Translations under genes and position numbers: made by a program
In this document: positions 10,081-62,361 of the stretch, piece after piece
Position numbering within the stretch: position 1 is the stretch's first letter
Layout: every line of letters begins with the position of its first letter
The notes under the pieces: model-generated
The model's input: only the letters and a program-made list of their open reading frames with translations
What the model was told of the DNA's origin: nothing
Databases searched by the model: none
From: Phapecoctavirus DIJ07P2
DNA length: 64,000 nt
Strand: one strand, 5' to 3'
Sequence record: OZ035771.1

Positions 10081-10099
10081 TATAAAACAATACGTTAGA

Positions 10100-50167: not shown

Positions 50168-50222
50168 TATTTTAACTTTTTTCATTTTTAGAACAAAGGT
50201 GTCACTTTGTAGCACAGAAATA

Positions 50223-50260
50223 AGGCTCCTACAGCACCGTAGAGAGCCTATTATTTTGTC
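50223..50260 (+). terminator. rho-independent terminator after rightward early block
   Basis: aggctcctacagcaccgtagagagcct interrupted hairpin followed by attattttgtc. Confidence 0.5.
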
Positions 50261-50390
50261 CTATACAAACCCTTGTCTTTTTCAGTTTGCATCACTAGGA
50301 TTCGATCTGAGTGGGTTCCTGAAGGTCTGCCAATAAGATTAAAGGTTATCTCAAATTCCCACTACCTATTATCTCAAAAATCCCTCAAAT

Positions 50391-50596
50391 TATTTAAACT
50401 TTTTAAGAATTTACAAAAGTGAAAGTTGAAAACCAAAATTTAAAGTTTAGGAAAATTATCTTAAAATGTCAGATACAAAACAAAACTCAAAAGTCAAGGA
50501 AAATTTTAAAAATTTTGCGCGCCCACAGTATTTAAAGTTTTTTTGCTTTTACAAAAATGAAAGTACAAAAGCAAAATTTAAAGTTTACAAAAATTT
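50391..50596. repeat. AT-rich direct repeats (two ~65-bp copies plus a degenerate middle copy)
   Basis: tatttaaaCtttttaagaatttacaaaaGtgaaagt...caaaatttaaagttta versus tatttaaaGtttttttgcttttacaaaaAtgaaagt...caaaatttaaagttta. Confidence 0.6.
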
Positions 50597-50607
50597 ATGC
50601 AGATGGG

Positions 50608-50721
50608 AATGAGAAGAGTTCTCATATGGAAATGCAAATGATAATGATTCGCATTTAGGTTTATAAATGAGATTGATTCTTATTTGATAAGGTAAATGAT
50701 AATCATTCTCATTTAGAGAAT
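50608..50721. promoter_or_regulatory. cluster of palindromic TTCTCAT/ATGAGAA-type boxes resembling Fur boxes
   Basis: atgagaaGAGttctcat (perfect IR); aaatgataatgattcgcattt; aaatgataatcattctcatttagagaatg (cattctc-N5-gagaatg). Confidence 0.45.
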
Positions 50722-50972
50722 GACGCGCAGGGGCGGTGTTTGTCTCGCGCTCCCGTGTCCCCTCGCCATGTAATAAGAATAACAGATCCAGCCAGGAAAG
50801 CAAGCGATTATTTTATCTTTACATTTCTTTACAAATATATAGCGCCCAGCCTACCGGCGATCAACCTTCCAACCAGCGCCCTGGTATGTTAGCCCCGCCT
50901 TTACGCCGTGGGGGTGGCGCTTCCTCTTCTGTATGTAAAACAGTATAAGCCCGATCCCTGGGCTTGTCAAGA

Positions 50973-51239
50973 TTATTTTTTGTTTTCTTGCCAGGTTAGG
51001 ACACCTAGCCAAAAATGAATATCACCTTTTCCCCAATGTGGTATATTGCTTTCTTTCCCACCTTCACGCGCCCAGGTAAAACCGCCCGTGTAACTTTGTA
51101 ATTGATAACTATCCTCGACCTTATAATCTGATAGGTTGAGAACTGTTTCAACCTTTAAGCCCGTTGCGCTTGCTACCTGGTGCACCGTGCCGCCTTGCCA
51201 GCCCAATGAGTGCATAAGGTGTAATGTAGTATTTGTCAT
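50973..51239 (-). CDS. hypothetical protein (88 aa), isolated leftward gene
   Basis: track ORF; only weak SD; sits inside otherwise non-coding GC-rich island, so uncertain. Confidence 0.3.
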   Translation of the reverse strand: MTNTTLHLMHSLGWQGGTVHQVASATGLKVETVLNLSDYKVEDSYQLQSYTGGFTWAREGGKESNIPHWGKGDIHFWLGVLTWQENKK

Positions 51240-51348
51240 GGTGTCGCCCTTTCTTTGTTGTGCGCCCTGGTTGGCGCGGTAGAAAGATGATAGCCCTTTC
51301 CTTTATATATAGCAAGCAAAAAGAAAATAAAAAAGATTGAAAAAGTGA

Positions 51349-51406
51349 TTGACGTTCGCCAGGTGGCGGCATAATATTTACCACGTAGGGCGGCAATGGT
51401 GCCGCT
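51349..51406 (+). promoter_or_regulatory. early promoter + 5' stem-loop cassette, unit 1
   Basis: TTGACG, N16, ATAATA; ccacgtaggg then stem-loop ggcggcaATGGtgccgct; ATG 51427. Confidence 0.55.
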
Positions 51407-51426
51407 CATTATTTGGAATTAAGATC

Positions 51427-51624
51427 ATGGCAACATTGCACATTGTGGCGAAAGCTGGACAAATCAACGTAGTAGTAAACGGTTTTACTGAGTTCAGTCA
51501 TCCCCAGGATGATCATGAAACGGTTTTATCTTTCATTGATTCACTGTTAGAAATGGGAGTCATTACAGAAGACCAGCACGCTACAAAATGCAAACGCGTT
51601 AATCAGATTGCAGGAATAGAATAA
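51427..51624 (+). CDS. small early protein (65 aa)
   Basis: first ATG downstream of cassette 1; track start 51349 lies in promoter. Confidence 0.5.
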   Translation: MATLHIVAKAGQINVVVNGFTEFSHPQDDHETVLSFIDSLLEMGVITEDQHATKCKRVNQIAGIE

Positions 51625-51630
51625 AAAGTA

Positions 51631-51690
51631 TTGACAACAACCAACAACCTGATAAGATGTATCACATAAGGCGGGAAATGGTTTCCCGCT
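51631..51690 (+). promoter_or_regulatory. early promoter + 5' stem-loop cassette, unit 2
   Basis: TTGACA, N16, TAAGAT; stem-loop ggcgggaaaTGGtttcccgc; SD gagag; ATG 51714. Confidence 0.6.
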
Positions 51691-51713
51691 CACAACAGAA
51701 GAGAGAAATCATC

Positions 51714-51986
51714 ATGGCATCATATAGCGCAACAATGATCGTAGCTGGTACCACTGGTAAACCTATGAGCGGTGGCGGATCTTTCGCTAATATTAATATT
51801 GATGGGCGTTTATCCCTGGACGCAGCGATCACCGTGGCGCGGGAAACATTTAAGAAAGAATGTGATTTCAACAAGCAAGATTATTTAGGTTTTGCTATTG
51901 AAAAAACGGCGCGTTTTGTTGATTATAAAAGTCCGAAAATGGTTGATACTACACTAAAAGCGCAAGATGTAGCCTTTTTGCTTTAA
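51714..51986 (+). CDS. small early protein (90 aa)
   Basis: ATG 51714 with SD; track start 51657 lies in -10 region. Confidence 0.5.
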   Translation: MASYSATMIVAGTTGKPMSGGGSFANINIDGRLSLDAAITVARETFKKECDFNKQDYLGFAIEKTARFVDYKSPKMVDTTLKAQDVAFLL

Positions 51987-51988
51987 GG

Positions 51989-52046
51989 CTTGACATTAAC
52001 GAATAATTTGTTAATATGTTACATAAAGCGGGAACTATTCCCGCTA
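51989..52046 (+). promoter_or_regulatory. early promoter + 5' stem-loop cassette, unit 3
   Basis: TTGACA, N16, TAATAT; stem-loop agcgggaaCTAttcccgct; ATG 52063. Confidence 0.6.
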
Positions 52047-52062
52047 TTTGTAAGGTGGTAGA

Positions 52063-52320
52063 ATGTTTTACATCAAATTAAAAGGTCACGTGATCGCGTT
52101 CAAGGATAACGCTTTTTACAGATTAGCAAAATATGCGTTAATACATCCCCATTATGTTTATATAAGGGGGCGTGATGAAATAAATATCTTTGATCAAACA
52201 ACATGCGAGAACATCGAGATCCGCAAGGTTGGCGTACGTGACTATCGTACATCTTTCTACCCTTGCAAGGATTCAGCAAGTCTTTTTAAAGTATGCCAAT
52301 TGTTGAAAAAAGGTGGTTAA
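52063..52320 (+). CDS. small early protein (85 aa)
   Basis: track ORF; SD aaggtgg. Confidence 0.5.
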   Translation: MFYIKLKGHVIAFKDNAFYRLAKYALIHPHYVYIRGRDEINIFDQTTCENIEIRKVGVRDYRTSFYPCKDSASLFKVCQLLKKGG

Positions 52321-52321
52321 T

Positions 52322-52879
52322 ATGGGCCGCGAATATGTGATCCAGTCTTGGGTAAAACATGAAGCAGATGATCCGCGCATCATTCCTGATTATCTTGTCG
52401 ATGAATCCACGGGCTATAGCGGGGAGCAAATAGGTAACAGATTAGCACGTAGTAACGGCAACGTAAAAGCGCGTTATGTGCGCCCTGGCTGGCTGGCAAA
52501 TGGTAACGCTGATTTATCCAGTGCGGAAGATGCGAGCGACGGCGCGAAAGATAATCCTTTGTACAAAGTTGATCCGGCTTTTCGTGTCCTGGATGAATAC
52601 CCCAGCAAGATAGCGGCGCTCGATCAGGCCCTGGAAAGTAAGCGCATCACCTGGACCGCTTACAACATGGCAAAAAACGTACTTGATGGTAAATTGATTC
52701 AAGCTGAAAGAAAATTAGCCAAAATTGCAGCCATAGCCCAGGAGGAAGACGAGGAGACAACGGAAGAGGAAGAGTACGAAGAGATCCCGCCGTTGTTGTG
52801 TGTTGATGCTTTTCCTGATTATCAGCCGACAGAGGAAGAAAAAAGGATCGCACTAGAAAACTTTGAAAATAGTCTTTGA
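52322..52879 (+). CDS. early protein (185 aa) with acidic C-terminal region
   Basis: ATG 52322 with SD aaaggtgg; EEDEETTEEEEYEE tract; second cistron of unit 3. Confidence 0.5.
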   Translation: MGREYVIQSWVKHEADDPRIIPDYLVDESTGYSGEQIGNRLARSNGNVKARYVRPGWLANGNADLSSAEDASDGAKDNPLYKVDPAFRVLDEYPSKIAALDQALESKRITWTAYNMAKNVLDGKLIQAERKLAKIAAIAQEEDEETTEEEEYEEIPPLLCVDAFPDYQPTEEEKRIALENFENSL

Positions 52880-52934
52880 CATATCGCCGCCACTGGCATA
52901 ATATTTACCACGTAGGGCGGCAATGGTGCCGCTC
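52876..52934 (+). promoter_or_regulatory. early promoter + 5' stem-loop cassette, unit 4
   Basis: TTGACA, N16, ATAATA; stem-loop gggcggcaATGGtgccgct; ATG 52962. Confidence 0.55.
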
Positions 52935-52961
52935 ATAGTGAAATTATGCAAGAGGCTTACA

Positions 52962-53057
52962 ATGATTAATAAAGGAAATAGCTTGACGGTTGGAACGATT
53001 AACGCTATCATTCTCGCCGTTCCATTTTGGGTTGTAGTAGCGGCTATTATTTTCTAA
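52962..53057 (+). CDS. hydrophobic micro-protein (31 aa)
   Basis: only ORF between cassettes 4 and 5; SD agagg; MINKGNSLTVGTINAIILAVPFWVVVAAIIF. Confidence 0.35.
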   Translation: MINKGNSLTVGTINAIILAVPFWVVVAAIIF

Positions 53058-53066
53058 AAAATATTC

Positions 53067-53127
53067 TTGACAACGTTTTTTAATCTGATAAGATGTATCA
53101 CATAGGGCGGCGGAATACTTCCCCGCC
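53067..53127 (+). promoter_or_regulatory. early promoter + 5' stem-loop cassette, unit 5
   Basis: TTGACA, N16, TAAGAT; stem-loop ggcggcggaatacttccccgcc; ATG 53149. Confidence 0.6.
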
Positions 53128-53148
53128 AAAACAAAAAAGGGTAACACA

Positions 53149-53511
53149 ATGAGCAAGCAAATCAATACTATCATGTTTAATCTGGTATCTTTCCGCGATG
53201 ATATGAAAAATTTACCACGTGAAACGGTTGATATTCATGTTTCAGCTTATCGCGCCCTTATTGACATGTTACCGCTAAAACGTGATCAACATGCCGCTAA
53301 TATGATGCTTAATGCTATGCTTAAAAAGATGATTCAAACGGATCTCACCCTGGCATATGAGTATCAAGGGCGCTTATATGCAAATTACAACAGAGCGGTA
53401 CCTGGTCTGGGAAGTACTGAAGAGTTGCACGGCTTAAACCTGGATCAAAACACTTGGGATAGTATGCGCCGCGTTATGGTATGGGCCGAAAGCGGTAAAA
53501 TTTACGAATAA
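53149..53511 (+). CDS. small early protein (120 aa)
   Basis: track ORF; SD aaggg. Confidence 0.5.
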   Translation: MSKQINTIMFNLVSFRDDMKNLPRETVDIHVSAYRALIDMLPLKRDQHAANMMLNAMLKKMIQTDLTLAYEYQGRLYANYNRAVPGLGSTEELHGLNLDQNTWDSMRRVMVWAESGKIYE

Positions 53512-53517
53512 AAACGG

Positions 53518-53574
53518 TTGACACTGTTTTTTATTCTGGTATAGTTTATCACGTAGGGCGGCAATGGTGCCGCC
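53518..53574 (+). promoter_or_regulatory. early promoter + 5' stem-loop cassette, unit 6
   Basis: TTGACA, N16, TATAGT; stem-loop gggcggcaATGGtgccgcc; ATG 53595. Confidence 0.6.
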
Positions 53575-53594
53575 AACAATAAAAGGTTAACATC

Positions 53595-53774
53595 ATGACC
53601 ATCATTGCAAAAACTGAGATTATAGGTTTAGATTCGATCCTCCTGGCTTATGAGGAAACTTTAAAAATGTATGTAGTGACCTATGGTGATTATGTGCGTG
53701 AATACGAATACATTGATCTTGCTTTCGAATGTTACATTCGCCAGGTCAATAAAGCCTATAACGATTATCGTTAA
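53595..53774 (+). CDS. small early protein (59 aa)
   Basis: ATG 53595 with SD aaaagg; stop 53772-53774; below track cut-off. Confidence 0.45.
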   Translation: MTIIAKTEIIGLDSILLAYEETLKMYVVTYGDYVREYEYIDLAFECYIRQVNKAYNDYR

Positions 53775-53793
53775 AAGTTTTAGTCTTATACTA

Positions 53794-53846
53794 TTGACAA
53801 TGAGTGATAGTATAAGCATAATAACTTTTATCGGGAATACTTCCCA
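53794..53846 (+). promoter_or_regulatory. early promoter + short 5' stem-loop cassette, unit 7
   Basis: TTGACA, N17, CATAAT; short stem gggaaTACttccc; ATG 53871. Confidence 0.5.
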
Positions 53847-53870
53847 CTAACCAAAAAAGAGAGTAATATC

Positions 53871-54236
53871 ATGGCTATTAATATCAATGTTTCCTCTTAT
53901 GCTACCCTGGCTGACACGGCTAAAATTGAATTATCCAGCATTGAGGCGGTGCATATTAGCGCCCGTCGTTGGTTTCAACAGTCCTACGGTAACACATATT
54001 TTTCTTTAATGGTTGACGTTGAGATCGGCGGTAAACTGATCGAGGTGGTTAACGTTCCGTTTCAATATGGTTATGGTGATCATTTTGATACCGTCGCCCT
54101 GGAAGAATTTAGCAAGGTTATTAATATGGAAGGTAAAGAGTTTTCACGCGGCGCGTATCTTTCCCGTTTTTGCCGTGATAATGGGATCACTGTATACAGT
54201 CATGCGAGCGATGTTAAACGTAAAAAAGATTTATAA
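53871..54236 (+). CDS. small early protein (121 aa)
   Basis: track ORF; SD agagag. Confidence 0.5.
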   Translation: MAININVSSYATLADTAKIELSSIEAVHISARRWFQQSYGNTYFSLMVDVEIGGKLIEVVNVPFQYGYGDHFDTVALEEFSKVINMEGKEFSRGAYLSRFCRDNGITVYSHASDVKRKKDL

Positions 54237-54242
54237 AAAGCA

Positions 54243-54302
54243 TTGACAGCACGAATAAAAAGAGTAAACTGTATTACATAGAGAGCGGGAACACTTCCCG
54301 CC
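54243..54302 (+). promoter_or_regulatory. early promoter + 5' stem-loop cassette, unit 8
   Basis: TTGACA, N16, TAAACT; stem-loop gcgggaaCACttcccgc; ATG 54327. Confidence 0.6.
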
Positions 54303-54326
54303 TCACTGAAAAAAGAGATTAACATC

Positions 54327-54566
54327 ATGGCTAAATCAAAAATGTTCTTAGGTCACAAAAATAAAACTCATTGGAATGTAAGCCTTTGGATTAATAACGA
54401 TGAATCGTTATATCGGTTGGCGAAAGAATTTATCGCCGCTAATACTAATCGTAATGATGCTGCCCGTGATATGATGTTATTCCTGGAACAAACTGGACAA
54501 GATAAAACTCCAGACGGTTTCAAGTATAGCACTACAGCGATCCGCGCCGCGATGGTTGGAATGTAA
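54327..54566 (+). CDS. small early protein (79 aa)
   Basis: track ORF; SD agagat. Confidence 0.5.
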   Translation: MAKSKMFLGHKNKTHWNVSLWINNDESLYRLAKEFIAANTNRNDAARDMMLFLEQTGQDKTPDGFKYSTTAIRAAMVGM

Positions 54567-54579
54567 AGGAGATATAAAA

Positions 54580-54660
54580 ATGAAACATCGTTCTACCTAT
54601 CTAACAAAACGTTTTAGCTTAGATCATAAATTGGGCTATTACGGAAGAAATAGAAAATAA
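54580..54660 (+). CDS. basic micro-protein (26 aa)
   Basis: ATG 54580 with strong SD aaggag 7 nt upstream; MKHRSTYLTKRFSLDHKLGYYGRNRK; second cistron of unit 8. Confidence 0.3.
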   Translation: MKHRSTYLTKRFSLDHKLGYYGRNRK

Positions 54661-54661
54661 T

Positions 54662-54722
54662 TTGACAACGTTTAAAATTAGTGTAAGATGTATCACATAG
54701 GGCGGGAAGTGGTTTCCCGCCA
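54662..54722 (+). promoter_or_regulatory. early promoter + 5' stem-loop cassette, unit 9
   Basis: TTGACA, N16, TAAGAT; stem-loop ggcgggaagTGGtttcccgcc; ATG 54744. Confidence 0.6.
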
Positions 54723-54743
54723 ACAACAGAGAGATTAAAGATT

Positions 54744-54971
54744 ATGGCTATCAATATTGTTCGCGTATCCGGCACCGTTGGCACTTCCCAAGTTATTGCA
54801 GTTGTAACAAACAAAAAGATTAATGATGTATGTGAAAGCTTGAATAAGTGGGCTATTGTTAATTTTGGGGAATATGCAAGCGTCGAGTACATCGAATCCT
54901 ACCAGGTGCCAACCATCAGCCTAACCGATCTCAACGTTGATCGCTTGTTGTGCCTGGATGAATTAATCTGA
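54744..54971 (+). CDS. small early protein (75 aa)
   Basis: track ORF; SD agagat. Confidence 0.5.
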   Translation: MAINIVRVSGTVGTSQVIAVVTNKKINDVCESLNKWAIVNFGEYASVEYIESYQVPTISLTDLNVDRLLCLDELI

Positions 54972-54981
54972 AAAAAGATTG

Positions 54982-55039
54982 TTGACACCGGAAAGAAAAA
55001 GAGTAGAATATATTACATAGGGCGGCAATGGTGCCGCTC
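54982..55039 (+). promoter_or_regulatory. early promoter + 5' stem-loop cassette, unit 10
   Basis: TTGACA, N16, TAGAAT; stem-loop gggcggcaATGGtgccgct; ATG 55063. Confidence 0.6.
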
Positions 55040-55062
55040 ACAACAGAAGAGAGATTATCACG

Positions 55063-55278
55063 ATGGCTAATATCCGCACTTTACTGAAAAATGCAAGTCA
55101 AGTTTTATTTTCAGATGATGAGTATTTCAATAAAGACATTACAGGCGTGAAAAATTTAAAAGACGTGAAGGATGTTATCGGTATTCGTGGATCTTTACGT
55201 AAAGGTGACTACTATGGTAACAAGGTGCAATATAAACTGTCAAAGGATTACAATTTTACTTTGACAATTATTTCATAA
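55063..55278 (+). CDS. small early protein (71 aa)
   Basis: track ORF; SD agagag. Confidence 0.5.
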   Translation: MANIRTLLKNASQVLFSDDEYFNKDITGVKNLKDVKDVIGIRGSLRKGDYYGNKVQYKLSKDYNFTLTIIS

Positions 55279-55284
55279 AACCGC

Positions 55285-55346
55285 TTGCAATACTGCAAAA
55301 ATAAAGTAAACTGTATTCATCAAGGCGGTGGAATAGCCAACCGCCT
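55285..55346 (+). promoter_or_regulatory. early promoter + 5' stem-loop cassette, unit 11
   Basis: TTGCAA, N16, TAAACT; stem-loop aggcggtggaatagccaaccgcct; ATG 55370. Confidence 0.5.
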
Positions 55347-55369
55347 AACAAAGAGAAGAGGAAAACATC

Positions 55370-55537
55370 ATGATCACTTTCGCTACCCGTGAAGCCGCTC
55401 GCAACGTTGCACGTAAAGTTAACGCCGCCAACCTGGGCGCTACGCTTAAAGCTCCGGTAAAAGATGAATCAGGCAAATGGATCTTCCCTGGTCTGCGTCA
55501 TGCTGACAAGTTAGGTACTTTAAGCCTTAAAAAATAA
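55370..55537 (+). CDS. small early protein (55 aa), basic
   Basis: ATG 55370 with SD gaggaaaa; stop 55535-55537; shares MITFA N-terminus with next gene; below track cut-off. Confidence 0.45.
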   Translation: MITFATREAARNVARKVNAANLGATLKAPVKDESGKWIFPGLRHADKLGTLSLKK

Positions 55538-55540
55538 TCG

Positions 55541-55580
55541 TTGACTTTTCGTTATAGCGCCTTACAATGGGCGCTATAGA
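55541..55580 (+). promoter_or_regulatory. early promoter with -10 embedded in palindrome, unit 12
   Basis: TTGACT, N16, TACAAT lying in loop of agcgccTTACAATGggcgct; ATG 55613. Confidence 0.45.
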
Positions 55581-55612
55581 GAAGAGAAACCACTACTAAC
55601 AAGGAAACCATT

Positions 55613-55834
55613 ATGATCACTTTCGCTATTGTCGCCGTTGTTGCTGGTCAAGTTTACGTAAATGAGACATTTACTACAGAAGACAAGGCAGCAGGAGATA
55701 TAACCGCCGTTTACAATGAGTGCAAGGCAGTAGAAAGGATGTTAGCGCCTTGTATGCTAATGAGTGAACGCCAGGACGGAATAACAGTATTTACTAACAT
55801 TGGAACAGGGTACCAAATGGTAGTAACAAAATAA
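55613..55834 (+). CDS. small early protein (73 aa)
   Basis: track ORF; hydrophobic N-terminus MITFAIVAVVAG. Confidence 0.5.
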   Translation: MITFAIVAVVAGQVYVNETFTTEDKAAGDITAVYNECKAVERMLAPCMLMSERQDGITVFTNIGTGYQMVVTK

Positions 55835-55837
55835 AGC

Positions 55838-55896
55838 TTGACACCGATTTAATTTTTAGTAAACTGTTACACGTAGGGCGGGAATAGTTCCCGCTC
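55838..55896 (+). promoter_or_regulatory. early promoter + 5' stem-loop cassette, unit 13
   Basis: TTGACA, N16, TAAACT; stem-loop gggcgggaaTAGttcccgct; ATG 55914. Confidence 0.6.
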
Positions 55897-55913
55897 AAAA
55901 AGAGAGAAAGATC

Positions 55914-56267
55914 ATGAAAGCACAAAATGCAATTAAAGAGTACATCCTTGCCGCTATCGGTTTTAATGATTACGGTATTACAACAGAAAAAGAGAAGATC
56001 GCGGAATTGATGCGCCGTTTTAATTCCGAGTACTGGTACCCTGATAACCAATCACGTTTTAATTATAGTATTGTTAAAGCACTTGCATCATGGTTACAAG
56101 GTTTGCCATCAGATATTAATATCGCTTTCGAATATTGGGAAGTGGATCGCTTGTTAACATCCTGGGGATACATTAAAGAGAATAGCAGCGATGATAAAAT
56201 CCAACGAGAAAGGGAAAATTATTGGCTTTATATTGCAGGCGTGATCCTTGCTTGCTCTTATGAATGA
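55914..56267 (+). CDS. small early protein (117 aa)
   Basis: track ORF; SD agagag. Confidence 0.5.
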   Translation: MKAQNAIKEYILAAIGFNDYGITTEKEKIAELMRRFNSEYWYPDNQSRFNYSIVKALASWLQGLPSDINIAFEYWEVDRLLTSWGYIKENSSDDKIQRERENYWLYIAGVILACSYE

Positions 56268-56273
56268 TAAACC

Positions 56274-56327
56274 TTGACAATTTTACAAAACAGTTTAAAT
56301 TAACAATATAGCGGCAATGGTGCCGCT
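56274..56327 (+). promoter_or_regulatory. early promoter + 5' stem-loop cassette, unit 14
   Basis: TTGACA, N16, TAAATT; stem-loop agcggcaATGGtgccgct; ATG 56347. Confidence 0.5.
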
Positions 56328-56346
56328 CATATAAAGAGGAAACAAA

Positions 56347-56493
56347 ATGAATACATCTAATCGCGCAGAAAAAATTCAATCTTCCAAGATCCGCAAGGCC
56401 TGGAACGAGGAAGTGATCCGCAAAGGCGACAAGCGTAATAAAACAAAGCGCGGGAAGAGTGACAAATATAATTGGATGGATTTAGAGGATTAA
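56347..56493 (+). CDS. basic small protein (48 aa)
   Basis: ATG 56347 with SD aagagg; Lys/Arg-rich; stop 56491-56493; terminator follows. Confidence 0.45.
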   Translation: MNTSNRAEKIQSSKIRKAWNEEVIRKGDKRNKTKRGKSDKYNWMDLED

Positions 56494-56500
56494 CATAACA

Positions 56501-56528
56501 AGGGCGCACCAAGCGCCCTTTCTTTTTA
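56501..56528 (+). terminator. rho-independent terminator (conserved caagggcgcacNaagcgccc type)
   Basis: gggcgcaccaagcgccc hairpin followed by tttctttttat. Confidence 0.6.
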
Positions 56529-56548
56529 TATGCAGAGGATAAACAAAG

Positions 56549-56734
56549 ATGACTTTAAACGAGCTTAAAACAGCCTACAACGCAACATTAAAAATAGCCG
56601 TGCGTTACCGTGATGCGTATGGTTTTATCGCGCAGGGCGTGATCCTGGGCTTTTCTGACGATGGTTTGATCTATGTTGATGCACATCACAACAAGGTTAA
56701 ACCTGAAAACGTCATTAATATAAAATATCTTTAA
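56549..56734 (+). CDS. small early protein (61 aa)
   Basis: track ORF; no cassette of its own (follows terminator). Confidence 0.4.
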   Translation: MTLNELKTAYNATLKIAVRYRDAYGFIAQGVILGFSDDGLIYVDAHHNKVKPENVINIKYL

Positions 56735-56740
56735 AAATGG

Positions 56741-56800
56741 TTGACACCATAACCGGACCTGTTAAACTGTATTACATCAGGCGGGGAATAGTTCCCCACC
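56741..56800 (+). promoter_or_regulatory. early promoter + 5' stem-loop cassette, unit 15
   Basis: TTGACA, N16, TAAACT; stem-loop aggcggggaaTAGttccccacc; ATG 56820. Confidence 0.6.
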
Positions 56801-56819
56801 ATACAAAAAGGTAAATATT

Positions 56820-57026
56820 ATGATCACCGCAAAACAAGAAAAAATCATTATCGACGTTGCAGCCGTTGCCGCTATCGCTATTATTGGATCTTATTATGAT
56901 ACCCGTTTCCCGTCGGCTATGCATGAGGTCGCCGCCGTTGCATCAGTTGGCGTACTGTTTTACGTTGGTAAACGCTATTTATCACCAATGATTAACAAGC
57001 TGACACCGTGGAAAAATAAAGGTTGA
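56820..57026 (+). CDS. small membrane protein (68 aa)
   Basis: track ORF; hydrophobic VAAVAAIAIIG and VAAVASVGVLFYV segments. Confidence 0.5.
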   Translation: MITAKQEKIIIDVAAVAAIAIIGSYYDTRFPSAMHEVAAVASVGVLFYVGKRYLSPMINKLTPWKNKG

Positions 57027-57080
57027 TCCTGTTTTACATTATGTTATAGTTATCGTGTAGGGCGGCAATGGTGCCGCGCC
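57023..57080 (+). promoter_or_regulatory. early promoter + 5' stem-loop cassette, unit 16
   Basis: TTGATC, N16, TATAGT; stem-loop gggcggcaATGGtgccgcg; ATG 57098. Confidence 0.5.
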
Positions 57081-57097
57081 CCTTTGAGGATGCAATC

Positions 57098-57382
57098 ATG
57101 AGTAAAGCTAACACCGTGCTAATGTTTTCCCTGATTAATGATCTCGCTTACTTGTCCAACATGACGCAGGAGGGTAACACATTAACGGCAACATTCACCA
57201 ATAAGCTTGACCGAGTGATCATCGTCTCACTGAAAACAGTTAGTAAAGGCTTTTACTTGTTAGCTTATCATTGTATCACTGATACCGATGAGACAAGCCA
57301 GGACTATAGCGCCCCTTTCCCTGAATCAATGGCACGGGAGATCATCGCCGCCGTTGTAAATGATGGTTTGTTTACTGCATAA
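57098..57382 (+). CDS. small early protein (94 aa)
   Basis: ATG 57098 with SD gagga; track start 57068 lies within stem-loop. Confidence 0.5.
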   Translation: MSKANTVLMFSLINDLAYLSNMTQEGNTLTATFTNKLDRVIIVSLKTVSKGFYLLAYHCITDTDETSQDYSAPFPESMAREIIAAVVNDGLFTA

Positions 57383-57400
57383 AATAATTTAGAAAAAGGC

Positions 57401-57458
57401 TTGCAATCATTTTGAGATAGTGTATATTTAATTCATAGGGCGGCGGGAATAGTTCCCA
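57401..57458 (+). promoter_or_regulatory. early promoter + 5' stem-loop cassette, unit 17
   Basis: TTGCAA, N16, TATATT; stem-loop gggcggcgggaatagttccc; ATG 57481. Confidence 0.5.
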
Positions 57459-57480
57459 AAGCAAACGAGAGGATTACACG

Positions 57481-57600
57481 ATGAGCAAGTACACAGTAGA
57501 ATACACGGTAGAGAATCCGGCAGTATCCGAAGGTAAAAAGATGACATTTACCATCAGTATAATCGCTTTCGTTGTCACTATCTTATCAATCATCTTATAA
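57481..57600 (+). CDS. micro-protein (39 aa) with C-terminal transmembrane helix
   Basis: ATG 57481 with SD gagagg; MSKYTVEYTVENPAVSEGKKMTFTISIIAFVVTILSIIL; stop 57598-57600. Confidence 0.4.
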   Translation: MSKYTVEYTVENPAVSEGKKMTFTISIIAFVVTILSIIL

Positions 57601-57610
57601 GGTGCACACC

Positions 57611-57772
57611 ATGAAAACAACAGATATTATCAAAGAGATCGCCCTTGCCGCTGGCGTTGAGATCGAGGAAGTGATCGCGCTCAATCTTACAGAAAACGAT
57701 CTGCGCAACTATGAAGCGGAAAGCGTGAAAGCAAGTGGCGCGGTCCTGGCATATAATCCGGCTAACAAATAG
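57611..57772 (+). CDS. small early protein (53 aa)
   Basis: ATG 57611 with SD aaggtg, preferred over track start 57572 which overlaps previous micro-ORF. Confidence 0.4.
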   Translation: MKTTDIIKEIALAAGVEIEEVIALNLTENDLRNYEAESVKASGAVLAYNPANK

Positions 57773-57773
57773 T

Positions 57774-57830
57774 TTGACAAGCTGAATCAACCTGATAAGA
57801 TGTATCACATAGGGGCGACAAGCGCCCCGC
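57774..57830 (+). promoter_or_regulatory. early promoter + 5' stem-loop cassette, unit 18
   Basis: TTGACA, N16, TAAGAT; stem-loop ggggcgACAAgcgcccc; ATG 57850. Confidence 0.6.
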
Positions 57831-57849
57831 CTAACAGAGAGATAGAATC

Positions 57850-58128
57850 ATGACCATCGCCAAATTATCCGCCGAAGAAATCGAACAAGTGCTAACTACT
57901 AACCTGGAACAATGGAAACGTGAGGCAGATATACAATCAGCACAATGGCTTAACGAGAAGTTAACACCGGATGATCTGAGTAAGATTATAGATCCTCAAT
58001 TCTACGAAGATATTCACGACACCGTTTTAAGCGTCGAGGATGTACTTGATAAGCATTATATTGCTACTGATTTGCAGGTTTACGGGCGTAAAAACTTTAT
58101 TACTATTCACGACATTTACAATAACTAA
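57850..58128 (+). CDS. small early protein (92 aa)
   Basis: track ORF; SD agagag. Confidence 0.5.
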   Translation: MTIAKLSAEEIEQVLTTNLEQWKREADIQSAQWLNEKLTPDDLSKIIDPQFYEDIHDTVLSVEDVLDKHYIATDLQVYGRKNFITIHDIYNN

Positions 58129-58136
58129 GGGATAAC

Positions 58137-58265
58137 ATGAATCCGAAAGATATGCAAGCATGGAAAGGGTACGACGATCTAAGCGCCTTGCGCAATAAGT
58201 CAAGCCGTAACCTTAGACGGTTAGAAGCAAAGAAAAAGAAAAAACAGTTTGACAAGTCCGCTTAA
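58137..58265 (+). CDS. Lys-rich micro-protein (42 aa)
   Basis: ATG 58137 with SD aaggg; ...RNLRRLEAKKKKKQFDKSA; 3' end overlaps next -35. Confidence 0.35.
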   Translation: MNPKDMQAWKGYDDLSALRNKSSRNLRRLEAKKKKKQFDKSA

Positions 58266-58305
58266 TCTGGTAAAGTGTATCTCGTAGGGCGGCAATGATG
58301 CCGCT
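58249..58305 (+). promoter_or_regulatory. early promoter + 5' stem-loop cassette, unit 19
   Basis: TTGACA, N16, TAAAGT; stem-loop gggcggcaATGAtgccgct; ATG 58326. Confidence 0.6.
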
Positions 58306-58325
58306 CACAAGAAGAGAGAAAAATC

Positions 58326-58610
58326 ATGAAGATCACAAAAAGCCTAACTAATTATGCAGCACGTCGCGGATTATGCTTAACCGTTGAAAACTCAGGGAAA
58401 GAAGACTTTTTGTGTTTTTGGGAGCTTGAAAATGATTGCGAGTGGATGTTTTCTTATTCTATCTGCGAAGATCAAAACGGTTGTTTGTTAACCTGGCGCG
58501 GTAATATCTATTTACCGGAAGAAATTAAAGAAGAGTTACCAGGTACGATCATGACAGAGAGACAGCTTAAGGAAGTGATCAATTTTGTAGGGCAAAACAT
58601 TAAAAAATAA
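58326..58610 (+). CDS. small early protein (94 aa)
   Basis: track ORF; SD agagag. Confidence 0.5.
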   Translation: MKITKSLTNYAARRGLCLTVENSGKEDFLCFWELENDCEWMFSYSICEDQNGCLLTWRGNIYLPEEIKEELPGTIMTERQLKEVINFVGQNIKK

Positions 58611-58612
58611 TT

Positions 58613-58673
58613 TGACAGCACGCAAACAACGTAGTAAAGTTTACCACATAGGGCGGCGGAATGGTCCACCGCT
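58613..58673 (+). promoter_or_regulatory. early promoter + 5' stem-loop cassette, unit 20
   Basis: TTGACA, N17, TAAAGT; stem-loop ggcggcggaATGGtccaccgc; ATG 58696. Confidence 0.6.
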
Positions 58674-58695
58674 CACAACAGAAGAGAAACAAATC

Positions 58696-58866
58696 ATGAT
58701 CCCGACTATGTTTTATGTATCGCGCAAAGGTCACAATATTTTTTGGTCTGAAGATTTAAATGAAGCCATGACGTTTGCCCGTGATCGTGTTGCTATCGGT
58801 GGCGTTAACATCACCGTAACCGATGAAAATGGCATTGAATACTATAACGGCGACGATGAAGAGTAA
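58696..58866 (+). CDS. small early protein (56 aa)
   Basis: ATG 58696 with SD agaga; track start 58612 lies in promoter. Confidence 0.45.
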   Translation: MIPTMFYVSRKGHNIFWSEDLNEAMTFARDRVAIGGVNITVTDENGIEYYNGDDEE

Positions 58867-58871
58867 TTAAT

Positions 58872-58893
58872 AAGGCGGGGAATACTTCCCGCC
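58872..58893 (+). promoter_or_regulatory. cassette-type GC stem-loop located downstream of a gene (terminator or RNA processing/stability element)
   Basis: ggcggggaatacttcccgcc directly after stop 58864-58866, not followed by a clean T-tract. Confidence 0.35.
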
Positions 58894-58932
58894 ACGCAGT
58901 GAATTTTCCGTTTGGGAAGTAAAAAATAAATC

Positions 58933-58994
58933 TTGACGATAATTTGTTATCTGATAGAATGTATTTCGTAGGGCGGGGCAATAAGGCAAGCCCA
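58933..58994 (+). promoter_or_regulatory. early promoter cassette with weak stem-loop, unit 21
   Basis: TTGACG, N16, TAGAAT; gtatttcgtagggcgggg then weak gggc..gccc stem; ATG 59011. Confidence 0.5.
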
Positions 58995-59010
58995 CAAAGA
59001 GGAAAATAAA

Positions 59011-59379
59011 ATGAGCAAATCAGCAATTAAAGCACTTGAAAAAGCACAAGAAGTGATCGCAACGTCAACCACTGGCGCAAAGGTTAATCTCGTTTGTTAT
59101 CTGACAGATGAAACTATCCGTAAAAATTGGCGTAATGCTGATTTACTGGCTTGCTTATTGATTAATAGTGTCGCTAATGCTTTCCAGTGTGAAACAGCCG
59201 AGAGCCTGGAGGAAAACTTGTTTGATAATATGGATCAAGCCATTGAAACCTATATACAATCAAACCTGGATAGCTGGAACAGTAAAACATGGCCCGACAA
59301 TTTACGCGATACAACTGATCAACTGATCCGCCTTGCCCTGATGGTTGAACGCGATAACGTTTACAACAGCACAAAGTAA
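59011..59379 (+). CDS. small early protein (122 aa)
   Basis: track ORF; SD agagga. Confidence 0.5.
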   Translation: MSKSAIKALEKAQEVIATSTTGAKVNLVCYLTDETIRKNWRNADLLACLLINSVANAFQCETAESLEENLFDNMDQAIETYIQSNLDSWNSKTWPDNLRDTTDQLIRLALMVERDNVYNSTK

Positions 59380-59387
59380 GATTATAC

Positions 59388-59410
59388 AAGGGCGCACTAA
59401 GCGCCCTTTA
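59388..59410 (+). terminator. rho-independent terminator (conserved caagggcgcacNaagcgccc type)
   Basis: gggcgcactaagcgccc hairpin then tttaacg. Confidence 0.5.
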
Positions 59411-59443
59411 ACGTAAAGAAATGTAAATAATGCGCTATCCCTA

Positions 59444-59475
59444 TTGACAGGGGATCGGCGTTATATTATATTTAA
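59444..59475 (+). promoter_or_regulatory. early promoter without GC stem-loop, unit 22
   Basis: TTGACA, N16-18, TATATT; ATG 59518. Confidence 0.45.
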
Positions 59476-59517
59476 CTTACTGGCAGCAAACAACGAAACG
59501 AAACAAAGGACAACATC

Positions 59518-59937
59518 ATGAACATTAAATCAAATAATCCAGCTTACTCCTTCGATAACGCTTTTTGTCACGGTAGCGCCGCCAAAGGCTTCGAAATCGA
59601 TGGTAAATTGGTTATCGTGAACGTTGACGGGGAAGAGGTTGCAGTGTATCCGGTAAACGATGTTAAAAGCCGTTTACAATGCCGCATGGATGTTACCGCA
59701 TATCAGCTTGATCCGGTCCGTGTAGTTGCCCTGGTATTAGAGGAAGAGATCAAAGCAATGCATCACAGTAATAAGTTTATTGGTGACGCGCAGGATAATA
59801 TGAACGTTTGCCGCCATAAAGTTAATGAAGCATTGAAAGAATGCGGTTTTAAGGATCTGATGATTAAACGTGATGAAAAATTCCGCTTTCGTAATGACCT
59901 GGCAAACCGGATCTACTCAATCTATGAAGCTTTATAA
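59518..59937 (+). CDS. small early protein (139 aa)
   Basis: track ORF; SD aaagga. Confidence 0.5.
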   Translation: MNIKSNNPAYSFDNAFCHGSAAKGFEIDGKLVIVNVDGEEVAVYPVNDVKSRLQCRMDVTAYQLDPVRVVALVLEEEIKAMHHSNKFIGDAQDNMNVCRHKVNEALKECGFKDLMIKRDEKFRFRNDLANRIYSIYEAL

Positions 59938-59952
59938 TCGACAACAAAACAA

Positions 59953-59980
59953 GGGGCGCACAAAGCGCCCTTTCTTTTTG
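59953..59980 (+). terminator. rho-independent terminator (conserved caaggggcgcacaaagcgccc type)
   Basis: ggggcgcacaaagcgccc hairpin followed by tttctttttg. Confidence 0.6.
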
Positions 59981-60059
59981 CCCGAACAATGTTGATAGCT
60001 TTCGCCTATGAAAAACCGACACAGAACAAAACTGAATAAATCGCGGTATCGAGCTAATC

Positions 60060-60480
60060 AACCAGCAAACGAATAACCATACCTCCCAGGGTTACAGGCT
60101 GTTAGAGAGCCATTTAGAGCGGTTAAAATCGATCAACAACCAACAACAAACCATCAAAAACACCCTTTTACCTCCTTTCTAGTGCAATGATAACCATTAT
60201 CATCTACCCATGATTATCTATGCAATATAAGCGCATAATTATAATGTTGATAATAGTTCGCAACAACTAACCAACAAACAACATAAAACAATAAGCAAAC
60301 TAATCATAATCAAAGGAATAATAGCAAGATGATTGATAACGACAAACAATCGAACCATGATGAATACTAAGCAAGATAACGATAACACGACAAAACAACC
60401 AACTAACGAACAATAACAAACGAAACCATTAAAATAATAACTATTAGCAAAATAGTGCCTGAATGAAATCATTACAAAAC
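60060..60480. repeat. strand-biased A+C-rich (plus strand) non-coding tract with short caacaa/gataacga-type repeats
   Basis: plus strand nearly devoid of G and T runs, e.g. caaccaacaacaaaccatcaaaaacaccc and gataacgacaaacaatcgaacc / gataacgataacacgacaaaacaacc. Confidence 0.5.
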
Positions 60481-60507
60481 GAATCATTCACAGAGTCATC
60501 ATTAGCA

Positions 60508-60660
60508 CGCTATGCCGGACACATAGCGAGCTAATAATAAGCCAACTACACCCCAACAATCATAACCATCGGTGACGGTTATTTCTTGTTACTGCGTAGC
60601 TTGCAATAATTGCAAGCGTAATGACGCTTACACTTATTGCGCTGGCTTATTATTAGCATT
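60508..60660. repeat. nested inverted repeats (potential cruciform / large stem-loop)
   Basis: cgctatg-N7-catagcg (60508-60528); 14-bp arms gctaataataagcc (60530-60543) and ggcttattattagc (60644-60657) flanking perfect 19-bp palindrome gcttgcaataattgcaagc (60599-60617). Confidence 0.55.
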
Positions 60661-60964
60661 ATATGTAATTACCAAGATCATAACATTAGCGCAATAACAA
60701 TAGTCATTGTAATAATTACATGAGTTATCACTATCGTTCAGTGTGATCATCATTAGCACAGTGAATAATTGCACGTAGCAACATGAGCGAATAGCGACAG
60801 GTTGCATAGTGTGCACATAGTGTATAAACATACAAGAAAATAAAGGCTAATCTTTTGGGGGCGAATACTATCGCGTAGCGATATGTTGAGCACCTTCTCT
60901 TAAACGTAAATAAAATCAGAAAATTCTTGATTTATTTTAGTTTTTATGTTAATAAACGTTTAAA

Positions 60965-60983
60965 TAATAATCATTCTCATATA
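60965..60983. promoter_or_regulatory. TTCTCAT-type Fur-box-like site
   Basis: ataataatcattctcatat. Confidence 0.4.
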
Positions 60984-61140
60984 AATAATAGTCTGCTTGT
61001 CATGAGCGGGATTAGTTGACAATGTTCCGTCATATGATGAAGTTGCCAAGCCATTGATAAATAAGTGTTTGTGTGATTTATAATCAGGTGGCCCACCTTG
61101 TCGCTATGTTGGCATGAGCCTTGCATAAGTCATTGAATAC

Positions 61141-61166
61141 GAATGATAATTATTCTCATTCGCATG
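61141..61166. promoter_or_regulatory. TTCTCAT-type Fur-box-like palindromic site
   Basis: gaatgataattattctcattcgcatg (gaatga-N9-tcattc). Confidence 0.4.
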
Positions 61167-61501
61167 ATATTTGGGAATTGTCGCTGCGTGGACCTGACGG
61201 CCCGAAAATTCGCGTTAAGCACTTCTTACGTATACGCCATGATTTTTGCCATATGATATTGATTCTATTAGATATTCTTGCCATTATTGCCATGAAACAT
61301 GGTGTCCCGAAATAATCTCTCCCCGTAGATATTTTGGGTTACTTTTTATACAAGAGTGGGGTGTCAAAAATAATCAGTATATATGGGATAATTGATAGGA
61401 ATCCCCTATGATAATTCGATTGTAATTCCCTAAGATTGATCGTATGATGTTGGTGATTGATGATTGCCATGAAAGATGGCTAACGATGAGAGGAGATTGT
61501 C

Positions 61502-61876
61502 ATGCAAGAGAGTAAAAATGTTCCGTTGAGTAGTGCAACATTGCTTCGCTTCTATAAAGCATGGATTGCCAACTATCCTGCAATGAATCGCACAACGAGT
61601 GGCTTATGTGGTTGTCTGGTAGATTATGTAAATGATTTTGTTGGTGAGACAACTAGAGAAGAAGATAGAAGATGGCGGGATAGTTTGTTGGACCGTTTGA
61701 AATATGAAATGAGGAAACAATTTACATGTGCAGGGCTGGACTATAATCTTCCGTTCAATGCAGATTGCATGGATTACCTTTCAGAGTGTATAAACTTGGC
61801 GTGTCATACCAACACGTTACGTCTTCAGTGGGTGAAAGACAGAATTGAAGATGCAAATAATGCTTGCATTGAATAA
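61502..61876 (+). CDS. hypothetical protein (124 aa), Cys-rich
   Basis: track ORF; SD gagaggag. Confidence 0.5.
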   Translation: MQESKNVPLSSATLLRFYKAWIANYPAMNRTTSGLCGCLVDYVNDFVGETTREEDRRWRDSLLDRLKYEMRKQFTCAGLDYNLPFNADCMDYLSECINLACHTNTLRLQWVKDRIEDANNACIE

Positions 61877-61925
61877 AGATGTTTGTATAATGGATGACAT
61901 AACAGATAGCCAATGAGGAGATGAA

Positions 61926-62358: not shown

Positions 62359-62361
62359 AGG

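Follow-up and report, generated by a model that had tools for sequence, protein, structure and literature searches.

A probable early region at the right end of a Phapecoctavirus chromosome, with palindromic boxes similar to those of the T5 injection-stop region

The segment between positions 50,168 and 61,501 of the window (the whole 64,000-nt stretch that was analysed, from Phapecoctavirus DIJ07P2, OZ035771.1) is best explained as the right-terminal early region of the phage chromosome, crossing a collapsed end-to-end junction, and we consider this reading probable. The same 19-bp palindrome marks both chromosome ends, with two boxes in a short terminal repeat, and the inner border of a block of tiny genes located just inside the right end (Table 1). 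The short terminal repeat was known previously; the tie between the boxes here and those of phage T5 appears to be new.

The window's phage belongs to Phapecoctavirus, with 95-96% identity to phapecoctaviruses (about 95% to tuntematon and Schickermooser). It is a phAPEC8-like coliphage. For Schickermooser, the published report describes a 328-bp terminal repeat and virion DNA ends mapped via abrupt read ends (PMC6563267). The first and last bases of Schickermooser align to window positions 60889 and 61217, within the right flank, and its record is 96.7% identical over 60889-61500. At least six further records begin or terminate at positions matching 60889 or 61217, and the segment between these positions is found at both genome ends in six related records and is 96-98% identical to the phapecoctavirus repeat region, with equal boundaries. 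Homology to relatives with mapped ends thus puts the chromosome ends at 60889 (left) and 61217 (right), in agreement with the original prediction that the region is terminal. The repeat is single-copy in the window because the window reads across the collapsed junction. As both ends lie inside the right flank, the gene block adjoins the terminus and is not itself the terminal repeat.

Table 1. Features of the right-terminal region and the adjoining left end (window coordinates; strand left empty where none applies).
Feature	Position	Strand	Basis or remarks
Terminator-like hairpin AGGCTC...GAGCCT then ATTATTTTGT, ending the upstream operon	50223-50259	+	Read from sequence
AT-rich direct repeats, 22.5% GC	50386-50595		Repeat families D14, D16
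Four Fur-operator-like palindromic boxes (50608, 50637, 50666, 50695)	50608-50716		29-bp period; similarity to T5 injection stop signal (iss)
GC-rich non-coding element	50717-50940		About 70-91% nucleotide identity across genera of Stephanstirmvirinae and Vequintavirinae
Sigma-70-type promoter-like site, TTGACA-17-TATACT, 11/12	50942-50970	-	Sequence scan
88-aa gene, function-unknown family	50973-51239	-	PHROG 19316, E 9e-53; annotated tuntematon_49
21 promoter sites before tiny genes, many with hairpin	51349-59472	+	Sequence scan
About 26 tiny early-type genes (39-188 aa)	51427-59937	+	ORF list, PHROG matches
Intrinsic terminator closing the block, GGGGCGCACAAAGCGCCC then TTTCTTTTT	59951-59973	+	Annotated terminator in Schickermooser
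End-proximal spacer without supported gene	59980-60888		A/C-rich, G-poor to about 60600 (42% A, 14% G)
Equivalent of the 329-bp direct terminal repeat	60889-61217		Homology to Schickermooser's ends; start and stop positions of other records
Box within terminal repeat, 74 nt from left end	60963-60981		87% conserved vs phiWec188, surroundings about 50%
Box within terminal repeat, 57 nt from right end	61142-61160		78% conserved vs phiWec188
Leader of the left end, with short direct repeats and promoter-like sites	61218-61501	+	Sequence

Both repeat boundaries are straddled by GTTRAGCAC, with the boundary falling between GTTR and AGCAC; this motif occurs four times in the window, two of the four at the boundaries. 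Comparison with phiWec188 reveals conserved islands at the left end (96%), the two boxes (87% and 78%) and the right end (88%), separated by stretches of 43-52% identity, and identity, as given with this footprint, falls from about 93% to 69% near the left boundary of the repeat. At the counterpart of the box at 61142, phiWec188 carries an inserted GATAAT hexamer. Short repeats are reported across both Stephanstirmvirinae and Vequintavirinae (Gotham, 459 bp; KPP-1, 514 bp; BME3, 342 bp). The window's repeat agrees with that of phapecoctaviruses in flanking gene order as well as in boundaries, and no difference from the known repeats is detectable; this part is already known. In the portions of the published accounts of these repeats available to us, we found no mention of the boundary motif or of boxes within the repeat. 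The repeat would serve T7-type cutting and duplication at packaging.

All genes of the block are transcribed toward the chromosome end. PHROG families, all of them function-unknown, were matched by 24 of the 25 block ORFs tested (E 1e-15 to 1e-113), and a Pfam scan of eight larger block ORFs yielded no domain in any. The gene content of the block differs among close relatives, in which its coverage is patchy. We call the block early on account of promoter type alone; host RNA polymerase would express it once its DNA is inside the cell.

A search for sigma-70 near-consensus sites (at least 10 of 12 matches to TTGACA-N16-18-TATAAT) between 51301 and 59500 returned 19 on the plus strand versus 2 on the minus strand. 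Markov shuffles gave a mean of 1.9 sites and a maximum of 6. About 10 nt past the -10 hexamer, 17 of the 21 promoters in the block have a hairpin that is GC-rich (-10.8 to -17.7 kcal/mol), the stems being of at least five different sequences; most block transcripts would start with such a hairpin, 3-5 nt from their 5' end. Downstream of most hairpins comes CACAACAGAAGAG in place of a U-run, the hairpin at 51388-51407 being the sole one flagged as terminator-like. The promoter-hairpin cassettes are repeated (repeat families D1-D9): all 42 nt agree between the copies at 51368-51409 and 52895-52936, and the window has just one other copy, at 28244 on the minus strand.

This layout recalls the promoter-early stem-loop (PeSL) cassettes known in T4-like phages (Arbiol 2010; Comeau 2014, PMC4122927), in which a host-type early promoter and a stem-loop are likewise repeated among the tiny ORFs of a variable region. 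As with PeSLs, cassette copies flank an indel between close relatives. In the one relative compared, tuntematon, one cassette-flanked indel was viewed in detail: a 2.7-kb insertion in tuntematon has sequence matching window 58887-59002 at each of its borders. Indels relative to tuntematon fall at cassettes, with other breakpoints at 54654 and 55597. The window's phage belongs to a different lineage, however, and the likeness is one of layout. Because most of the hairpins have no U-tract, they are unlikely to act as terminators, unlike PeSLs as described; located 3-5 nt into the transcript, they resemble stabilising 5' hairpins more than the terminator part of a terminator/promoter composite. 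The hairpins would stabilise short mRNAs, and the cassettes would supply homology by which accessory genes are gained and lost, a role proposed for the T4-like cassettes.

The block of tiny genes with host-type promoters anticipated by the original prediction is thus real, with 26 ORFs found in place of the 27 genes counted there. The related boxes expected on both sides are present, and so are the direct repeats (50386-50595) and the inverted repeats (60521-60666). The description of both flanks as non-coding does not hold for all of the left flank, where there is an 88-aa gene on the minus strand, and the right flank contains the chromosome ends.

The 19-bp palindromic box (AATGATAATCATTCTCATT) occurs with at most three mismatches at six distinct sites in 64 kb (0.03 expected), all of them in the flanks: 50637, 50666 and 50695 on the left and 60186, 60963 and 61142 on the right. 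A weaker fourth left copy at 50608 completes an array phased at 29 bp that sits 10.5 kb from the right end. The boxes resemble the E. coli Fur operator, both as the iron box (GATAATGATAATCATTATC) and as the 7-1-7 motif (TGATAATnATTATCA). Three sites match the 7-1-7 motif with one mismatch and three more with two; within two mismatches, the window holds seven sites (0.89 expected), six of the seven in the flanks. Compared with published natural Fur iron boxes (PMC10665472), the window boxes differ at 2-4 of 19 positions. They form phased arrays, as at strong Fur sites, but the preferred half-site is TGAGAAT/ATTCTCA and not the TGATAAT of the consensus, and, in contrast to classical Fur operators, the boxes show no clear overlap with strong promoters. 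A BLAST search of E. coli genomes with one box region gave no match.

The left array shows significant similarity to hundreds of T5-like phages in a database BLAST search. Window 50630-50684 matches T5 9655-9709 at 80% (E 2e-4 database-wide, 3e-9 pairwise), inside the annotated iss feature of T5 (9140-10149), and perfect matches of 27-29 nt are found in the T5-like phages VSe12 and DT57C. From this similarity we take the left array to share ancestry with the boxes of T5's injection-stop region. In the literature searched we found no paper that connects T5 and Fur boxes.

We take the boxes to be putative binding sites of an abundant protein that the cell already contains, most likely host Fur. 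Such putative binding might pause or tether entering DNA, insulate early transcription or help end recognition. Alternatively, though somewhat improbably, the boxes bind a phage protein (e.g. the terminase recognition subunit or an early regulator) that acts in end recognition or cutting at packaging. The position of boxes 57-74 nt inside each end, where together with the cut sites they make up the conserved islands of the repeat, is consistent with such a role, as are the several boxes in the Gotham repeat, the consistent departure of the half-sites from the Fur consensus and the location of the T5 array, which is about 0.5 kb away from the inner edge of T5's long repeat, an edge that terminase cuts as well. 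The array 10.5 kb away is not at a cut site, however, and the 27-29-nt identities with T5-like phages would need a shared binding protein; none was identified, and a tblastn search of the window with T5 terminal-repeat proteins revealed no protein in common.

Upstream of the left array, the last gene of the preceding operon encodes a NADAR-domain protein (49625-50167; Pfam PF08719, E 8e-35). The direct repeats that follow consist of a 72-nt unit present twice (82% alike) and a 29-nt unit present three times. Beyond the array lies the GC-rich element, whose left edge bears a well-conserved box. Indels in this element are not multiples of three, covariation is weak, the RNA folding z-score is -1.15 and Rfam gives no match. 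The promoter-like site next to it, which overlaps the 88-aa gene's terminator hairpin, is directed into the conserved element, with both hexamers broadly retained in other genera. The 88-aa gene is the sole minus strand gene of the span, and Pfam finds no domain in it.

These parts could also be read as a lytic replication origin, in which the promoter fires into the G-rich element and primes DNA synthesis, the boxes being iterons and the AT-rich repeats an unwinding element; we regard this as unlikely. The order of the parts fits (minus strand promoter-like site at 50970-50942, conserved element, four-box array, 22.5%-GC repeats), and conservation of the element across genera, without signs of coding or strong RNA structure, fits an element acting at the DNA level. 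Against an origin, neither flank contains an occurrence of the DnaA box (TTWTNCACA), cumulative GC skew has no inflection at the left flank, the same boxes are present in the terminal repeat, and the homologous T5 array is not regarded as an origin.

The resemblance to T5 extends to the layout. Both phages have an end-adjacent block of about 10 kb with small genes under host promoters, a cluster of the same (DRC/pal-type) palindromic boxes at its inner border and one box near a chromosome end (T5 233-247). In T5, however, the terminal repeat is about 10 kb long and contains the pre-early genes, whereas here it is 329 bp without the block; the window has no A1/A2 homologue, DnaA boxes are absent from both flanks, a LexA-like palindrome and DRD repeats are likewise missing, and the window's phage is a myovirus of another family. 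Tblastn with 15 T5 terminal-repeat proteins against the 64-kb window (of a genome of about 150 kb) gave no A1/A2 match at E up to 10. The original prediction saw the arrangement as analogous rather than homologous to that of T5; the T5 analogy has more in its favour than was supposed there, the left array being similar in sequence to the T5 iss. The Vequintavirus Gotham has the same layout as the window: a repeat annotated at 1-459, a spacer of about 1 kb, tiny genes at 1498-10941 pointing to the end, and the conserved element together with boxes at 11.0-11.4 kb, with boxes also within the terminal repeat.

By analogy with T5, the right-terminal 10.5 kb might enter the cell first and halt at the left array until products of the tiny genes admit the remaining DNA, a scheme we consider quite doubtful. 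In its favour are the sequence resemblance of the left array to the array that lies within the annotated iss of T5, the position of Davison's calculated first-step shear point (9618, in the coordinates of a different T5 record) in or beside that T5 array, the size of the segment (10.5 kb in the window, about 11 and 14 kb in Gotham and Schickermooser, respectively, comparable to the 10.2 kb of T5) and the tiny host-promoter genes aimed at the end like A1, A2 and dmp of T5. However, the long terminal repeat is absent, as are an A1/A2 homologue in the window and the DnaA boxes, a central feature for Davison. The boxes also sit in the terminal repeat and are thus not specific to an inner stop, and the literature searched yielded no experimental account of DNA entering in two steps in this phage group.

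The terminal-repeat reading of the original prediction, with the entire block as a long repeat that was collapsed in assembly, is very improbable: although related boxes flank the block on both sides and a single window copy would be expected then too, relatives with mapped ends (94-98% identity) have a 328-329-bp repeat and the block at the right end only, the left end of Schickermooser starts with different genes, and most listed records are about 145-152 kb, leaving no space for a second 10-kb copy.

The spacer before the terminal repeat contains, besides one box (60186-60204), a compound inverted repeat (60505-60685), the region of which has a folding z-score of -6.2; most relatives have no annotated CDS in its counterpart. 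Beyond the repeat, the leader precedes the first gene of the left end (61502-61876), whose transcription runs away from that end, and part of the leader (61326-61498) is conserved in Justusliebigvirus.

The region between the two repeat-rich flanks is probably a right-terminal accessory block, driven by host-type promoters and carrying shuffling cassettes, in a phage with short direct terminal repeats, followed by an end and packaging region. This reading is the best supported and is an ordinary one. Escherichia phages of the genus Phapecoctavirus (Stephanstirmvirinae), among them tuntematon, Ro121c4YLVW, Mt1B1_P17 and nieznany, share 94-96% identity with positions 50170-61500, with patchy alignment coverage (63-96%, in 6-10 aligned pieces). 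For the same region tuntematon is annotated with ~35 hypothetical proteins; its left flank bears two features labelled 'repeat_region', and its right flank (1.6 kb) has no annotated gene.

The chromosome ends lie in the right flank. According to Korf et al. (PMC6563267), genomes were linearised where reads end abruptly, and the terminal repeat of the phapecoctavirus Schickermooser is 328 bp. In the Schickermooser record, which starts AGCAAGTTCTCTTAAACG and finishes CCCGAAAATTCGCGTTA, the first 329 bases equal the last 329, and these termini align to positions 60889 and 61217, from which it follows that the window crosses a collapsed junction. The sequence from 61218 onward is the left chromosome end, with genes directed inward. 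The records of Ro121lw, 10C3_SA_NWU, WPEC4 and WPEC6 start at the base equivalent to 60889, that of Mt1B1_P17, in reverse orientation, stops there, and the BI-EHEC and WPEC1/2/4/6 records start or stop at the base matching 61216-61217. Of the four GTTRAGCAC copies in the window, two lie across the repeat boundaries, one at each; they share one orientation, and the cut follows GTTR. A short terminal repeat is already known for the genus, and reports for other members of both subfamilies (Stephanstirmvirinae and Vequintavirinae) give short repeats of 342-514 bp. The block as one long terminal repeat was rejected on the basis of relatives with mapped ends: Schickermooser carries it only at ~137-150 kb, and its left end opens with different genes. 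The original prediction of a terminal-repeat region was thus right in location but wrong in extent.

Comparison of the 329-bp repeat with phiWec188, a phage of a proposed separate genus, gave 69% identity overall, distributed unevenly (left end, 96%; right end, 88%; the two boxes, 87% and 78%; the sequence between them, 43-52%). Identity to phiWec188 is ~93% over 59011-60816 and then 69-76% through the repeat and the genes of the left end, so that with this drop at 60817-60889 the chromosome end coincides with a mosaic breakpoint between lineages. We rejected exceptional conservation of the A/C-rich spacer, which at ~93% to phiWec188 matches the adjacent genes. A compound inverted repeat at 60505-60685, with a 15-bp outer stem around two hairpins (−56.5 kcal/mol, z = −6.2), precedes the repeat's left boundary by ~200-380 bp, is kept in phiWec188, and may be a cruciform or part of a packaging signal.

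The block comprises ~26 small plus-strand ORFs (51427-59937), close to the 27 tiny host-promoter genes first predicted, and is the final transcription unit ahead of the right chromosome end. PHROG matches were obtained for 24 of the 25 ORFs tested, all to families of unknown function, and a Pfam scan of eight of the larger proteins found no domain in any. The plus strand of 51301-59500 carries 19 sites that match TTGACA-N16-18-TATAAT at 10 or more of the 12 positions, against 1.9 expected from shuffles (maximum 6) and two on the minus strand. We found no tRNA or tmRNA across the window, no Rfam match in 49500-62500 at E values up to 1, and, in a literature search, no transcriptome study of the two subfamilies.

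A GC-rich hairpin (−10.8 to −17.7 kcal/mol) follows 17 of 21 block promoters, ~10 nt past the −10 hexamer. The stems are of at least five different sequences (e.g. GGGCGGC/GCCGCTC, GGCGGGAA/TTCCCGCT and GGGGCG/CGCCCC), so pairing has been kept while sequence changed; two cassette copies are identical across 42 nt. Downstream of most hairpins comes a purine-rich ribosome-binding region and not a U-run, and we read them as 5′-terminal mRNA hairpins. Stabilisation of mRNA by 5′ hairpins is established in E. coli, and by analogy the block mRNAs may be stabilised in the same way. The alignment to tuntematon breaks at 54566/54654, 55592/55602 and 58879-59002, and both borders of a 2.7-kb tuntematon insertion align to 58887-59002, which is the pattern that recombination between cassettes should leave. 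Promoter-early stem-loop (PeSL) cassettes of T4-like phages have been proposed to mediate such recombination (PMC4122927). The cassettes here are PeSL-like and so of a known kind, our literature search found no description of them for this phage group, and they suggest that the gene shuffling known from T4-like phages operates here too, which would help explain why therapeutic coliphages of the genus differ mainly in the block. In the equivalent block of the Vequintavirus Gotham, similar hairpins follow 4-5 of 10 promoters. The sole cassette outside the block (28244-28217, minus strand; TTGACA-16-TAAGAT, then GCGGGGAATAGTTCCCCGC) precedes a minus-strand gene amid a replication and metabolism region.

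The layout of repeat, tiny genes, and element with boxes is conserved with Gotham, which has an annotated 459-bp repeat at 1-459 (PMC7471380). This repeat is followed by ~1 kb without genes, a terminator, ~30 tiny genes with predicted promoters, all directed at the end (1498-10941), and the conserved element (11019-11380), which holds boxes at 11165 and 11301; the repeat itself carries more. The element is 11.3 kb from the record start in HdK5, EdH4 and the bov phages, and the distance from array to right end is 10.5 kb in the window and ~14 kb in Schickermooser. A short terminal repeat with an early-gene block is ordinary for this phage group.

Features of the left flank and sites of the 19-bp box
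Feature	Position	Strand	Remark
Terminator-like hairpin	50223-50259		closes upstream operon
AT-rich direct repeats	50386-50595
Four-box array	50608-50716
GC-rich element	50717-50940
Promoter-like site	50970-50942	−	overlaps terminator hairpin of 88-aa gene
88-aa gene	50973-51239	−
First block promoter	51349
Box sites	50637, 50666, 50695, 60186, 60963, 61142

Both flanks had been predicted to be non-coding, which holds for the right flank, where no gene is supported, but not for the left, which contains the 88-aa gene. The GC-rich element and its adjacent box are the only part of the flank still alignable in distant genera (Justusliebigvirus, Vequintavirus, Mydovirus, Seunavirus and Certrevirus). 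This ~230-bp element with its Fur-like box is conserved in nucleotide sequence across at least seven genera of Vequintavirinae and Stephanstirmvirinae, in which the flanking genes are unalignable; counterparts lie in the compared loci L006 (~3030-3345), L007 (~3001-3280), L008 (~3010-3290) and L009-L013. Comparisons with several loci (including L003 and L014) were done by eye or by sequence search. Some records call the element a 'hypothetical protein', and we take it to be non-coding, as its indel lengths are not divisible by three. As a small gene it was rejected, its ATG not being conserved, and as a structured RNA it was likewise rejected (weak covariation on either strand, with 4 and 1 compensated pairs; folding z-score, −1.15); it has no Rfam match. 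The last gene ahead of the flank (49625-50167) encodes a NADAR domain (Pfam E value 8e-35), a family implicated in ADP-ribose removal from DNA, and the gene before it (48069-49076) has endonuclease and HNH-endonuclease PHROG matches.

A search of the 64 kb for the box, AATGATAATCATTCTCATT, with up to three mismatches revealed six distinct sites, all in the flanks (0.03 expected), and a weaker copy at 50608 completes the left array of four with a 29-bp period. The related boxes first noticed on both sides are thus confirmed, and the box and promoter counts together place the earlier observation far from chance. Schickermooser has no copies in its first 50 kb other than the two within its terminal repeat. 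When up to two mismatches are allowed, the 7-1-7 Fur motif TGATAATnATTATCA occurs at seven window sites (0.89 expected), six of them in the flanks. Literature Fur 'iron boxes' include TGTAATGATAACCATTCTC, ATAAATGATAATCATTATT and GATAATGAGAATCATTATT (PMC10665472); the window differs from TGTAATGATAACCATTCTC at 2 of 19 positions at 60183 and from ATAAATGATAATCATTATT at three positions at 50692, so that the boxes fall inside the variation seen among natural Fur operators. BLAST of one box region against E. coli genomes gave no match, probably owing to query length and filtering. The boxes resemble operators of an abundant host protein, and they may be bound by a pre-existing host protein, most likely Fur, an assignment that we hold tentatively.

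In BLAST searches, the left flank and subsequently the array by itself matched hundreds of T5-like phages (Demerecviridae). Where positions were listed, these matches lie ~7-10 kb from a record end or at the equivalent place in the right-hand repeat. The T5 match (9655-9709) is within the long terminal repeat (1-10219) and the annotated injection stop signal (iss, 9140-10149), in an array at ~9549-9719 with boxes such as TTAAATGAGAATCATTATCATTTGCATTT; perfect matches to the window reach 29 nt in VSe12 and 27 nt in DT57C. T5 and the present phage show the same departure from the Fur consensus in the second box of the aligned pair, AAATGAGATTGATTCT(T/C)AT, which points to shared ancestry of the module and not to convergence on one binding site. 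A preprint by Davison on the T5 iss describes the same part as DRC repeats with palindromes palE-palJ, puts the shear point calculated for first-step DNA at 9618 (coordinates of another T5 record), and mentions neither Fur nor these myoviruses; our literature search found no paper linking T5 with Fur boxes. In two myovirus subfamilies, members of the box family stand at both ends and at the inner border of the block, and the family has sequence in common with the T5 iss array. It thereby ties these subfamilies to the T5 injection stop. We know of no explanation for the halt of T5 DNA after ~8% entry, which precedes any phage gene expression.

Binding of the boxes by a phage protein has a modest chance, and no such protein common to T5 and the window was found. 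A replication origin in the left flank, which carries AT-rich direct repeats, is unlikely; host-factor searches found no Chi site in the whole window, no DnaA or LexA box in either flank, and a single IHF-like site. The T5 region has both DnaA boxes and a LexA-like palindrome. T5-like staged DNA entry is possible but unlikely despite the common array, with no long repeat, no A1/A2 and no DnaA boxes; the T5 pre-early proteins have no homologues in the window (best match, dmp, E value 0.007, outside the block). We find it doubtful that the boxes are a horizontally shared DNA module bound on incoming DNA by host-resident Fur. If they were, phAPEC8-like and rV5-like myoviruses would, much like T5, stage DNA entry or tether the chromosome end, expression would start from the right-terminal 10-14 kb block, and the T5 iss, whose mechanism is still not understood, would in part be an array of Fur-binding sites. 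The phage-protein, origin and staged-entry readings are not mutually exclusive and can coexist.

We also observed further operator-like sites in the T5-like phages. A LexA-box-like palindrome, TACTGTATAAATATACAGTA, lies beside the Fur-like array in the T5-type iss (~655-760 of T5 8755-10609; ~2770-2990 of the phiR2-01 locus L004); with DnaA boxes, LexA-like and Fur-like sites, the T5-type iss looks like a cluster of sites resembling operators of host DNA-binding proteins. A perfect Fur 7-1-7 motif, TGATAATCATTATCA, is located ~150-250 bp in from the left terminus in T5-like genomes (T5, 233-247; phiR2-01, 149-163). As it lies inside the dmp coding sequence (DDNDYQ, minus strand), it may be a coincidence, and it could be either functional or a product of coding.

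Coliphages of the genera compared here share 82-98% identity with records labelled Campylobacter phage (B15, A147 and others), Acinetobacter phage ABPW7 and Pseudomonas phage PsgM04F; these records are probably mislabelled as to host, or come from contaminated samples. The phapecoctavirus records WPEC1/2/4/6 and vB_EcoM_REC are 155-161 kb long, against the usual ~150 kb, and the WPEC1 left flank is ~24 kb from the end, against 11-14 kb elsewhere. In these long records either the block is much expanded or the assembly contains a duplication.
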